Below are positions 26,310-30,216 of a DNA stretch of 33,093 nucleotides, one piece after another. The position numbers and the translations under genes are program-made. The notes beneath the pieces are model-generated. The model did not search any database. It was not told the origin of the DNA and saw nothing but the letters and a program-made list of their open reading frames with translations. The first letter of the stretch is position 1, and the number at the start of each line of letters is the position of its first letter. Source of the stretch: a virus (lineage: Duplodnaviria; Caudoviricetes); the IMG/VR virus record IMGVR_UViG_3300017722_004904, positions 1 to 33,093 of that record, one strand, 5' to 3'.

Positions 26310-26876
26310 ATGGGAAAGATTAAAACACAAGATATACTATCTGAAACTACTCAAAAAATATTGACTGAAAATAATAGTTCAGTTTCTTTTAATAAGATAA
26401 AAAAAGAAAAGTACAGCAAAAAAGAATTTACAATTGATCGGGGTTTTGATTTGTTAGAGAGACTAATCATCGTAAGGCCTTACATTCAAAAAAAGTATGA
26501 TTTAACTATTGATTTGTTGGAATTGTTGCTTTACCTACATGGTAAAAAACTATTTACCCAAGCTGATTTTGCTGAAATACCAAAACAATTTTCATACGCC
26601 TCAATTAGAAACATACTTGATACTGGCCATGTTGTTATAGCGCAAGAAGGCGTTGATCTTAGCAAACATGTATATAAGTTAAGCGTACATGCCACGCACG
26701 GAATAGAAGATTTTTATGAATTACTAAGTGGAGAAAAAAAGTTTCCGGAATACACTTTAATGAACCCGCTTTCTAAAAAAAGGGATGCCGCTGCCATTGA
26801 TAAAAAAAGAATGCGATTGATCAAAAAAATCAATCTTCTACCTCCTCCTGAGAAGCATAAAAATTTGTACCTTTAA
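26310..26876 (+). CDS. Putative winged-helix (MarR-like) transcriptional regulator (188 aa)
   Basis: KKYDLTIDLLELLLYL...FTQADF...IRNILDTGHV...VYKLS pattern; lone counter-oriented gene with an operator on its promoter. Confidence 0.6.
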   Translation: MGKIKTQDILSETTQKILTENNSSVSFNKIKKEKYSKKEFTIDRGFDLLERLIIVRPYIQKKYDLTIDLLELLLYLHGKKLFTQADFAEIPKQFSYASIRNILDTGHVVIAQEGVDLSKHVYKLSVHATHGIEDFYELLSGEKKFPEYTLMNPLSKKRDAAAIDKKRMRLIKKINLLPPPEKHKNLYL

Positions 26877-27350
26877 GCAAGTCGTGCCTTAGTTTATTGA
26901 TTGGCTCCTTTTTTATTCGTTCTAAAATTTCCCTGAGTACCTTGGCGCGCTGCTCCTCGGAACCACGAAAAAAGAAAACTGGGCTTACTTGATAAGCCCC
27001 TCTTCCTTTGTATTTTAATAGTAATTCAAACTTAGCTAAATTAGAAAAACAACGGTGTATGGTAGTGGTAGAATATTCCTCCTGCCCTATTTTTTTTAAG
27101 AGTGTATTGAATTTTGTACGGATTTGAATACTATTGGTAACAAAGTTGTTATCATCCATTTCCTCTGTAATGAAGTCCAAAAATATCCTATCGGCTTTTG
27201 ATAATTTCATTAGCAGCAATAAAGAATTATGATAGCGCTTTGTAAAAGTAGCTTCTACCGAAATAGACGAGAACTTGAATAGCTCTAGCTTTTCAGTATA
27301 GCTTTTGGCTACATCTTTTGATAAGTACTTTATTACCTTTTTTTTTTCAT
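26830..27350 (-). CDS. RepL-like helix-turn-helix protein; start separated from the body by a frameshift in an A10 run
   Basis: C-terminal RGAYQVSPVFFFRG resembles RepL-family motif; frame is open upstream to 27357, but ATG 27350 plus A10 is 1 nt out of frame. Confidence 0.65.
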
Positions 27351-27395: not shown

Positions 27396-27659
27396 TCATA
27401 ATATCAGTTCTATTTCGGTTTTTTCTTGAAGGAATAAACATTTTTTGCCTTGGTACCCTATCGGTACTCCACAGTGTTCGTAGTGTCGCACCATATCGCC
27501 AATTTTCACATGCTCTACTTTTGGACCTATCATAATTACCTTGCCTTCGCGGGGTTGTTTTACGGCTTCTCCTGGTAAAAATATTCCAAAAGCAGTTTGT
27601 GTTACTGCCTCTGAAATTTCTATGAGTACTTTGCTTCGTATTAAACTTTTGATTTCCAT
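27396..27659 (-). CDS. groES: Co-chaperonin GroES-like protein (87 aa)
   Basis: KVLIE...TAFGIFLP mobile loop, GKVIMIG, VKIGDMV. Confidence 0.85.
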   Translation of the reverse strand: MEIKSLIRSKVLIEISEAVTQTAFGIFLPGEAVKQPREGKVIMIGPKVEHVKIGDMVRHYEHCGVPIGYQGKKCLFLQEKTEIELIL

Positions 27660-28207: not shown

Positions 28208-28482
28208 TACTTTTTTAGATTACGTTTTACAGTTTTTCCTTTGTTGCAGTCACAAGACTCACAATTGCATGGTTTTTTACTAACTGAATTTACTATTGCA
28301 GCATAATTCCCGTTTTCCCAGAAGGTGATTGCGCCGCCTACCGAAGTCCATATTTCAGCCTCTTTATCATATTCAAACTCAGTGATACCAGTTACATCAA
28401 TATTCATTTGGTTTGTTAAACAAGTAATTGTTTTTGCGTTAGAAAAATGTTTCCTAACCGCTTGTAAATTTGGCTTATTCAT
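28207..28482 (-). CDS. Hypothetical protein with C-terminal CxCxxCxC cluster (91 aa)
   Basis: Coupled ORF; PCNCESCDCN. Confidence 0.7.
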   Translation of the reverse strand: MNKPNLQAVRKHFSNAKTITCLTNQMNIDVTGITEFEYDKEAEIWTSVGGAITFWENGNYAAIVNSVSKKPCNCESCDCNKGKTVKRNLKK

Positions 28483-28859
28483 TACAAAAACTGTTTTAGG
28501 TTGGGTTTAAAGTAGTTTGGCCCTTTTAATACCTTACCGTCTTCACGGTAAATTGGTTTCCCGTCAGCGCCAAGCTTACTCATGTTGGAATCTTGAATTT
28601 CATAGAATACTTTTTCTATGATGTTGTGCATACCATGGTGGTTAATGGTGCCAAGCAAAATGTAAAGTTGATCACCCAGCGCATCAGCCACGCCAACTAA
28701 ATCATTTTCTTTTACGGCTTCGAGGTATTCCTCATTTTCTTCTTTCATCAATTCGAAACGAAGTGTACCTTTTTCTAAACCAGTTAACATTGGTTTTTTT
28801 GAAATGGGTTGTTTGAATTTCTTTTGGAAACTTCTTACTGCTGCTAATAATTTTTTCAT
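28482..28859 (-). CDS. MazG-like / PRA-PH nucleoside triphosphate pyrophosphohydrolase
   Basis: EENEEY, VADALGDQLY, SNMSK, REDGKVLKG motifs. Confidence 0.88.
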   Translation of the reverse strand: MKKLLAAVRSFQKKFKQPISKKPMLTGLEKGTLRFELMKEENEEYLEAVKENDLVGVADALGDQLYILLGTINHHGMHNIIEKVFYEIQDSNMSKLGADGKPIYREDGKVLKGPNYFKPNLKQFL

Positions 28860-29053
28860 ATACTCTTAATTTCTGTTTTAATTTTTTGTTCTTCTTCTGT
28901 TAAGTCTTGCAACTTTGACAAATAAATTTTTTCGTTTTGAATAACTCCACAGGACCTTAGATTAAATAACAGTTCTCTATTGGAATGTTAGGCATCAGTT
29001 CAGCCAAACTGAAGCAGATAAAAAGAATTTAATTTTAACCTAAACAATAAAAA

Positions 29054-29245
29054 ATGGAAAAAGTATTAGTAGCAAATGTGTCTTCTGGATTAATCGAAGA
29101 GCTTAGAAAAGGAAGTCATTCTTTAGAATTTGAATTAACAGAACTAAATAAACACCTTTCCGAAGGTTGGTCAATAAAGAATTACGATATTGTCCCAAAT
29201 CAAAGTACTAATACTTTTAGCATTATTTATCGGCTAACTAAATAA
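29054..29245 (+). CDS. Cassette-encoded small protein, DUF4177-like (63 aa)
   Basis: A-rich leader; LNKHLSEGWSI resembles the LN..G.EGWE motif. Confidence 0.7.
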   Translation: MEKVLVANVSSGLIEELRKGSHSLEFELTELNKHLSEGWSIKNYDIVPNQSTNTFSIIYRLTK

Positions 29246-29453
29246 TTAGAACTTATCTACCATTTCTTTGGTTGTCTTAAATATTGGAAGCCAAAGAAAT
29301 CGGTAAATAGTTACTGATTTAAAAAGATTGTTTGTTCCGCAATCATTCATAAATTTTGTGTGTTTTGAAAACATAATGTTGAATTTTAATTGTGTTTCTG
29401 ACTTTAAAACGGCGCAGAAACTAAACCGAAATATTGAACATAAAGAACCGAAT

Positions 29454-29580
29454 GCCTAACAGCTACTACAACGGATTTGGGTATTTGGCTTAATGGGGGA
29501 AATAGTTTGTATTTGGGATGATTTGGCAAATCCGAATAATGGGCTTAATTTAGTCCCAAACCCGCTGTAGTAGCGGGACG
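29454..29580 (+). repeat. attC-like recombination site
   Basis: R'' GCCTAAC (29454-29460); arms GCTACTACAACGGATTTGGG (29462-29481) and CCCAAACCCGCTGTAGTAGC (29555-29574) are 18/20 complementary; ends GGGACG; 133 bp in circular form. Confidence 0.8.
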
Positions 29581-29709
29581 ATATTTTTTTTCAATAATTA
29601 TAGTAGCAATATTCTTCGCTAACGATATTTCATCATCTATTGATTCTGTACAGTTTAATGGAAGTGAGTTTAATATTTCGCCAAATAATTTTGTTCCTTT
29701 CATAAAAAT

Positions 29710-30216
29710 CTATTTAAACATTCTACGTACATACTCCGCGATAAGCGCGGCATCAATCATTCCGTCATTATGGTTTTTTGATGAATTACCTGCATTGGTA
29801 ATTTTGAAATTGGCATTGGGCCAAAGGTTGACTGCTGCCATAGTTGAAGTCGCCTTAGTGTCATTGCCTTTTCCAGTAGCTTTCTTTTGGGTTTTTACGT
29901 GTTTCCAACATTCTTTTTGCCATTCTTTTGGTTTTATAAGGACAAAAGGAGTTTTTAAACCTATCATAATGCCCTCGATTAAGCCTACACAATGCGATAA
30001 AGAAGCAACGGCACTCTTGCCTACTCCAAAAATAATATCAGGACTTTCTAGCCCTATCTTATGAAAGTCTCTACTAGCTAGAATATCCACAATACCTTGT
30101 CGGTCGTATTCCTTGCCTATGAGTGGAGTACCTATCATTTCAACTACATTTGAGTTTTCGTCAATTACAACAAAAGCTCCTTGCTTTCCCGGGTCAATTC
30201 CTAGATAGTATTTCAT
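29710..30216 (-). CDS. RuvC-like Holliday junction resolvase
   Basis: LGIDPG, IGLES, PKEWQK, DGMIDAALIA catalytic pattern. Confidence 0.88.
   Translation of the reverse strand: MKYYLGIDPGKQGAFVVIDENSNVVEMIGTPLIGKEYDRQGIVDILASRDFHKIGLESPDIIFGVGKSAVASLSHCVGLIEGIMIGLKTPFVLIKPKEWQKECWKHVKTQKKATGKGNDTKATSTMAAVNLWPNANFKITNAGNSSKNHNDGMIDAALIAEYVRRMFK

Follow-up and report, generated by a model that had tools for sequence, protein, structure and literature searches.

How did a cassette that ends in an integron-type hairpin come to lie inside a gene of a tailed phage, and which enzyme placed it there? The question is raised by the virus record IMGVR_UViG_3300017722_004904 (Duplodnaviria; Caudoviricetes), whose entire 33,093 bases were analyzed and are hereafter called the window. 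A first-pass annotation, prepared from the sequence alone, had proposed that an insert at positions 28988–29580 splits a small phage gene at a G|AT secondary site and was written there by an integron-like recombinase of the host. We regard it as nearly certain that this cassette insertion into a phage gene is real and well bounded. The explanation that we consider probable is that a single Flavobacterium-type cassette entered a G|AT site in an accessory phage gene, the likely catalyst being a host recombinase that heads cassette arrays and lacks I2, the insertion specific to the integron integrase IntI.

A 593-bp cassette divides a phage gene

The cassette occupies 28988..29580 on the plus strand and comprises 593 bp. 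Its left crossover (28987..28995, plus strand) reads G|TTAGGCAT, and the TTAGGCAT that follows G28987 is the exact reverse complement, at 9/9 bases, of the cassette's own R″ core ATGCCTAAC at 29452–29460. Each core 9-mer is single-copy in the window, as is the left arm motif of the hairpin described below, and the chance of meeting the complement of TTAGGCAT within 593 nt is approximately 0.002. The right end reads GGGACG|ATA at 29580, placing the right crossover at G|AT (29580..29582, plus strand), where G closes the cassette and AT belongs to the phage target. The insertion is accompanied by no target duplication and the outer ends of the cassette carry no terminal inverted repeat; the complement of the left end sits inside, 120 nt before the right end. 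Local AT skew flips across the insert. The boundaries, the nine-base complementarity, the GGGACG end and the missing duplication put forward in the first-pass annotation all hold.

In silico deletion of 28988–29580 (593 nt) restores, as had been proposed, a single open minus-strand frame of 84 codons (41 + 43) running from 29703 to 28856, which lies between a RuvC-like and a MazG-like gene and whose stop overlaps the MazG-like start. In the filled form, the frame of the 5′ half (29581..29703, minus strand; 41 codons) extends by 11 codons within the hairpin before it meets a stop at 29545, giving the 52-aa product found in the list of open reading frames (ORFs), in line with the earlier suggestion that the phage gene may be knocked out. 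The 3′ half (28856..28987, minus strand; 43 codons and the stop) is itself intact, but an in-frame stop precedes it and its own ATG is absent; the insertion breaks the coupling to the MazG-like start and may be polar on the operon.

Intact versions of the gene are on record. With the 41-residue 5′ half as query among longer proteins, one match was obtained, the 85-aa protein P0001, to whose residues 1–41 the query is 80% identical; the 3′ half is 67% identical to P0001 residues 43–84, and the P0001 junction (...IEKEY HSNRELLFNL...) is in register with both halves. A search with P0001 retrieved 16 proteins, 15 of them full length (79–97 aa) and the 16th being the window's own truncated 52-aa product. 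Among 26 target-gene loci from three scans, 21 rows (15 distinct contigs) are uninterrupted, three belong to this phage and two lack a readable motif. The split site, G|AT, satisfies GWT (W, A or T) at −1 to +2, and the same bases stand at the junction in two intact contigs, which identifies G|AT as a Tyr-His codon pair viewed from the opposite strand. An intact homologue on a phage contig (L242) reads GGAATG|ATATT across the empty junction, the same as the reconstructed site. The contiguous gene expected in relatives is thus present, both as full-length homologues in register and as an empty junction.

The filled state was also recovered beyond the window. The 48-kb IMG/VR record L001 represents the same phage, with 1 in 1000 bases different over the locus, and is likewise filled; one 32.8-kb contig in run X1, at a depth of 84, covers the whole stretch; and in another study (X4), a 151-nt contig (28882–29032) reads across the filled left junction with zero differences. 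Because the left junction is bridged in a second study, an assembly chimera is unlikely. The right junction was seen only in X1 and in the 48-kb record, which are possibly the window's own source and so may not be independent of it.

Relatives of the cassette itself were found in metagenomes and in a host genome. In run X5, a 526-nt contig carries a near-identical copy, matching 28987–29481 with two differences (99.6%); its first 27 nt differ from the window and end in the apparent right arm of another hairpin. The match of a contig in X8 also begins at 28987, with a mere three letters preceding it. Runs X9 and X12 gave no match on the cassette, and GenBank phages and PLSDB plasmids, queried with the cassette by blastn, yielded only short chance matches. 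Among 401 genomes of the genus Flavobacterium, G107 contains a homologue (74%) of the entire cassette body, placed between two hairpins in an array. Its ends read G|TTGGTGGT / ACCACCAAC, compared with G|TTAGGCAT / ATGCCTAAC in the window, so that both ends differ while their pairing is kept. The near identity to the X5 copy, together with the intact 3′ half, points to a recent insertion.

Hairpin sites in Flavobacterium arrays

The attC-like hairpin site spans 29452..29580 (plus strand), beginning with R″ at 29452–29460. Its arms, at 29462–29481 and 29555–29574, are 90% complementary and form a 20-bp stem without a gap, and the spacer measures 1 nt on the left and 5 nt on the right. Folding of the circularized site gave −24.5 kcal/mol (z −6.0) for the bottom strand and −24.3 kcal/mol (z −5.5) for the top strand, relative to 200 mononucleotide shuffles; since both strands fold alike, energy alone gives no strand choice. 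At two stem positions A faces C, in 104 and 106 of 108 copies, and these positions form G.T pairs on the bottom strand only. Rfam contained no match close to gathering score for the hairpin.

The hairpin recurs in tandem arrays of Flavobacterium, where it bounds unrelated ORFs, as the first-pass annotation had anticipated for its palindrome; with the 74% cassette homologue, the proposed search for site and cassette in arrays of Flavobacteriaceae has thus found both. An estimated 290 or so GTDB stretches contain the left arm motif, and among the 77 listed loci with titles, 75 are from Flavobacterium and two from a Bacteroidota metagenome-assembled genome. The right arm was recognizable in 124 of 154 hairpin copies, in which the register of the window's GAT is occupied by GTT in 108/124 and by GAT in 0/124. 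A general hairpin detector, which requires GTT and is blind to the window's own site, reported 306 sites in the 77 loci, with a right spacer 4 nt longer in 191/306; in 183 kb of shuffled DNA it falsely reported 27 sites, three of them at the 4-nt offset. Consecutive sites follow an array rule, whereby the six bases before AAC complement the upstream boundary (93/190 consecutive site pairs; the site's own downstream end, as a control, gives 10/190, and shuffles give a mean of 3.1, maximum 10). This rule indicates that the units were once circles, opened between G and TT.

The same data bear on the idea that the insert is a non-autonomous transposon, resembling a miniature inverted-repeat transposable element, or a chimera assembled at a repeated hairpin, with G|TT incidental. 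Many of the contigs are short, which marks the hairpin as a high-copy repeat that breaks contigs, and the restriction of the right junction to records possibly from one source would also suit a chimera. However, the insert has neither a duplication nor outer terminal inverted repeats, and the internal position of its left-end complement is cassette-like; the array rule, the compensating ends, the left junction from a second study and the 32.8-kb contig at depth 84 all fit a cassette, and both flanks join to one conserved gene, which is not expected of a chimera. We therefore consider a transposon or chimera extremely unlikely and proceed with a cassette inserted by site-specific recombination.

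Two further kinds of site were noted. Four host hairpins (L012, L074, L112 and L117) are followed by G|TC and a common sequence, TCAGGCTGTG... or TCAAACTG..., rather than by G|TT; at L074, no transposase-sized ORF stands directly behind the hairpin, and the next ORF, of 351 aa with an SxxK motif, appears by eye to be serine-hydrolase or beta-lactamase-like. Phages also carry arrays, of at least three cassettes each, at L153:600–2150 (minus strand) and L005:1030–2442, both beginning just ahead of a shared small gene (60 aa) that is encoded on the opposite strand. The L153 array starts with ...AACGAG|TT, resembling the end of some of the host attI-like sites described below, and the two phages may keep an entry site of their own. 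One of them is a complete 36-kb genome without a tyrosine recombinase.

The recombinase at the array heads

Which host enzyme could act on these sites? In three of five genomes, TIGR02249, the integron-integrase profile, has its best match directly upstream of an array and on the same strand. All three whole array-head proteins score below the curated cut-off (204, 210 and 218 bits versus 265), and 0/201 genomes of the genus, a sample that includes incomplete genomes, have a match above it. Among the top matches listed, all break off near profile position 180 and pick up again near 238; 83 further matches lie outside the listed set. Residues 251 to 270 of the array-head enzyme align with residues 182 to 243 of VchIntIA (2a3v), approximately 42 residues fewer, in the region that we take to be the site of the IntI-specific insertion. 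The catalytic residues R204, K229/K232, H294, R297, H320 and Y329 are invariant in 30/30 sequences, and PF00589 is matched at E 2e-42. The enzyme is closest to archaeal XerA, with one of three proteins reaching 222 bits against NF040815 (cut-off 220) and the XerA structures 4a8e and 5hxy as best fold matches; the top rows for the full-length model are recombinases only. The enzyme carries an N-terminal extension of 70 residues, present in three copies in a 584-aa form and modeled as two strands, a helix, two strands and a helix (predicted local distance difference test score, pLDDT, 71). Proteins of ~560–610 aa with three N-terminal modules form a second size class (G001:C1:2413979–2414797, which is L162; G092; G036), and some genomes carry two copies of the recombinase.

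The recombinase was found in 104/201 genomes of the genus. It is present in 20/24 genomes with the exact arm motif and in 84/177 without it (Fisher p 0.0009, uncorrected for kinship and assuming the same sample). Where enough sequence was available, a co-oriented hairpin followed within 1.2–1.5 kb after the recombinase in 11/21 loci and an antisense one in 1/21, while a hairpin lay upstream in 1/31. Downstream of the co-oriented recombinase gene, at a distance of 102–108 nt in 26/31 loci, stands a conserved site consisting of a small hairpin and then TATAWACWAG|TT, which we read as the equivalent of attI.

The phage target is unlike this entry site and is therefore a secondary site. Mimicry of the attI-like site was rejected, as the target ranks 669th among the 2379 GWT sites in the phage under an attI-like weight matrix derived from 26 training sites, three of which are weak and probably spurious; TAT at −10 to −8, which the target shares with the attI-like site, occurs at 60/2379 GWT sites. 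At three host loci, elements start with G|ATGG behind a hairpin or an attI-like site, the two whose full length could be read ending in CCATC, which supports the view that the system accepts A in place of T. Host junctions in the 201 genomes comprise 2 G|AT and 88 G|TT, with L218 as an additional G|AT element.

The two host G|AT junctions were also considered as secondary-site insertions, an idea that was rejected, as they belong to elements with GAT...ATC ends. Short hairpin elements with GAT...ATC cores stand at cassette positions in host arrays at L245:148–280, L246:198–235 and L218 (at the attI-like site), and two of them begin with G|ATGGTAGGCAATCCC.

An ordinary attC × attG reaction could instead have been carried out by a classical, I2-bearing integron integrase supplied by a mobile integron or by some other resident of that cell. 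A GWT target, the missing duplication and the G|TT rule are all IntI behavior (Loot et al., 10.1101/2022.09.11.507474), a figure legend reports recombination by IntI1 at one attC taken from a Polaribacter phage (PMC9892861), and extrahelical bases are dispensable at some sites (PMC5027507). However, the arrays are headed by an I2-less enzyme, the 201 genomes hold no TIGR02249 match over the cut-off and the listed matches skip profile positions ~180–238, and the hairpin has neither the canonical spacer nor extrahelical bases. A classical integrase is, in our judgment, very unlikely to have acted here.

The array-head recombinase would account for the locus as follows. During infection of a Flavobacterium-like host, a cassette would be cut from a host array as a circle, an intermediate in which one strand would fold into the hairpin. 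The host recombinase would then make a single crossover after the G of GAT (GWT) in the phage gene, in the manner of attC × attG, with its N-terminal domain, perhaps HARP-like, taking the place of I2 in hairpin recognition. HARP domains have a role at DNA junctions. The outcome for the phage would be neutral and probably silent. The cassette boundaries, the empty junction in homologues, the array rule, the place of the recombinase and its attI-like site at array heads, and the missing insertion are seen in the sequences; the circle, the single crossover and the array-head enzyme as catalyst are inferred. A broader picture, which we offer tentatively as possible rather than probable, is that Flavobacterium harbors a second, independently built kind of integron: a XerA-like enzyme without I2, whose N-terminal HARP-like domain would recognize hairpins with a 4-nt bulge and G.T pairs, and which would shuffle arrays behind a fixed entry site and also write cassettes into GWT sites of infecting lytic-type phages. 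Phages might lose genes to it; in some lineages, they might retain arrays with an entry site of their own and ferry cassettes from one host to another.

Several observations weigh against the array-head recombinase as the agent. At the target, positions +6 to +9 read TTTT instead of CRGM, the motif of IntI1 attG hotspots. The hairpin was not detected within the reach of the detector in 10/21 recombinase loci, and a recombinase match is absent in 4/24 hairpin-bearing genomes; G005 has arrays and no recombinase match at E 1e-30, and G004 retains only a 53-codon recombinase remnant, at one array head. As for the N-terminal domain, Foldseek ranked 4o66 (SMARCAL1 HARP) first and second at weak E values of 0.25–0.32. 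A wide fold search placed SUI1/eIF1 folds first (eIF2D SUI1, Z 4.9, rmsd 2.6, 60 aligned), returned UvsW (Z 3.8, rmsd 6.7, 57 aligned) and 6k4y_M (Z 3.6, rmsd 3.1, 56 aligned), and did not have 4o66 among its best 50 rows. HARP was not matched by Pfam or PDB profile searches of the domain, for which Pfam reported DUF5710 in 6/27 members (best E 0.002); the HARP-like fold is thus only suggestive, a lead from modeling. The search for an empty site gave a divided answer, with homologues uninterrupted and the empty junction present in L242, and with an empty allele of this very phage not found: the joined flanks were not seen in contigs of runs X1, X3, X4 and X5 (contigs drop rare variants), the sole occurrence of the 23-nt left flank is the phage's own record, and two related phages (L002 and L003; RuvC 87% and 76%) have neither the interrupted gene nor the MazG-like gene at this place.

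To the same list belongs the incompleteness of the phage genome, its 48-kb record being ~66% complete. A recombinase encoded in the unassembled third or by a co-infecting element could have made the insertion, or the filled gene could have been acquired from another phage by homologous recombination; the target gene is common to many different phages, and others (L005 and L153) carry whole cassette arrays. However, PF00589 found no match in 5/5 phage records, including the complete 36-kb phage with an array and the 48-kb record, where the first-pass remark that the window holds no integrase thus still applies. The closest relatives of both cassette and hairpin are in Flavobacterium genomes, and transfer between phages would still require an initial site-specific insertion. 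An origin of this kind appears unlikely, and insertion by the host array-head recombinase remains the explanation that we prefer. With respect to the phage, the absence of the gene from two related phages at this place marks it as accessory, and the occurrence of the filled form in two studies suggests that the insertion is tolerated; on both grounds, the broken gene looks dispensable and its knock-out is probably neutral.

Cargo, setting and comparison with known systems

The cassette carries an ORF for a 63-aa protein (29054..29245, plus strand), antisense to the phage operon. Seven homologues are 62–98% identical, one of them from Flavobacterium with the UniRef name DUF4177; no significant Pfam, NCBIfam or PHROG match was obtained and the Atlas score is 0.89, under 0.9, such that a DUF4177-like protein is a lead only. 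TAnnTTTG is the promoter consensus of Bacteroidetes. No such motif occurs within the cassette and sigma-70 promoter matches for the cargo are at chance level; given this and an orientation opposed to the phage operon, the cargo gene is probably silent in the phage. The non-coding leader (28988–29066) and trailer (29372–29460) are 76–95% shared with cassettes of other cargo in several Flavobacterium genomes, a sequence pattern that suggests families of cassette backbones. Most of the ORF is flanked by a 25-nt inverted repeat (29047–29230, 88%); after the cargo stop comes a perfect inverted pair of 10 nt (29262–29300), partly retained in the G107 homologue. In other phage-borne cassettes (L153:1811–2152, L158:2422–2637, L005:1638–1832, L005:2073–2372, L180 and L181), the ORF is antisense to the cassette direction and therefore faces the phage's own transcription; the N-termini of these ORFs read through the hairpin, for example as NKALSQTAVSDR.

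The terminase of the phage itself shares 56% identity with the terminases of Cellulophaga phages phi18:3, phi46:3, phi19:3 and phi13:2, of which phi18:3 is classified under Pachyviridae, and the metagenome runs that contain most of the window are freshwater. Upstream of the interrupted gene stands the gene for the RuvC-like Holliday junction resolvase (29710..30216, minus strand; PHROG 1770, E 4.6e-26); the MazG-like nucleotide pyrophosphohydrolase gene that overlaps its stop lies at 28482..28859 (minus strand; PHROG 671, E 9e-37). Elsewhere in the window, where the structural module borders on the replication module, two possible helix-turn-helix genes (26310–26876, plus strand, and 26830–27219, minus strand) form a convergent, overlapping pair. 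A GroES-like gene occupies 27396–27659 (minus strand; PHROG 3188, E 4e-14).

We found no account of a Flavobacterium cassette system without I2 in the literature covered, a coverage that is incomplete and limited to main texts; additional phage sites are given in the supplements of PMC9892861, which may be relevant to novelty. Complete integrons are reported to be almost absent from Bacteroidetes, Salinibacter alone being named in the accessible text of PMC9024848, and the I2 helix has been described as an innovation that enables IntI to recombine folded single-stranded sites (PMC7790495). Against this background, a cassette apparently drawn from arrays with an I2-less head follows the same off-target rule in a natural phage gene, with donor cassette and empty gene both on record. 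Hairpin and secondary site provide a defined substrate pair with which to ask whether I2 is truly required. The event was likely neutral for the phage, and its value is as mechanistic evidence; it would mean that host cassette systems edit phage genomes during infection.

Among known enzymes, XerA-like recombinases (NF040815; 4a8e, 5hxy) are the best matches of the array-head enzyme in both sequence and fold. XerA acts on double-stranded dif sites, whereas the gene described here heads cassette arrays and encodes an extra N-terminal domain.

Classical integrons (VchIntIA, PDB 2a3v; PMC7790495, PMC5027507) resemble the Flavobacterium system in their AAC...GTT cores, a 3′ hairpin site per cassette, tandem arrays and a fixed attI-like entry site beside a tyrosine recombinase whose catalytic set is intact. 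The host enzyme has that catalytic set and entry site, yet it is ~42 residues shorter at I2, falls below the TIGR02249 cut-off, is extended at the N-terminus by 70 residues (or by three such modules) and is oriented towards the array. Its hairpin likewise shares with attC the inverse core AAC and core GTT with the left-end complement, the G|TT crossover and the tandem recurrence. Canonical attC sites, however, have an unpaired central spacer of 5–6 nt in each arm and two or three extrahelical bases near L″ (PMC5027507); here, the spacer is 1/5 nt and A/C mismatches stand in place of extrahelical bases.

Lone cassettes at GWT sites, the single attC sites lacking integron integrases (SALINs), and attC clusters in phages have both been published (10.1101/2022.09.11.507474; PMC9892861). 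The attC site clusters without an integron integrase (CALINs) and integrons in phages, including Polaribacter phage P12002L (Qi et al. 2023, PMC9892861), share with our locus attC-type cassettes, hosts of the Flavobacteriaceae type and the lack of a phage integrase. In the accessible text, those are clusters of at least two sites, identified with canonical attC models and tested with IntI1, and no Bacteroidota enzyme is named, whereas the present case is a single cassette that splits a gene. The closest parallel is the SALIN arising by attC × attG (Loot et al., 10.1101/2022.09.11.507474): there too, a cassette stands alone with no nearby integrase and has crossed over after the G of GWT without duplication, a gene may be disrupted as a result, and the target does not resemble attI. 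Our locus differs in that a phage genome was hit, the insertion arose in nature and has empty homologues on record, CRGM is absent and the likely enzyme is without the IntI insertion. Of the original proposal, a host integron-like recombinase is thus supported but not as a classical IntI, the enzyme being without the IntI insertion and co-oriented with its array and the hairpin not a canonical attC. The event works as attC × attG does, yet site and enzyme both depart from the classical attC and IntI patterns, which sets the Flavobacterium system apart from a classical integron.
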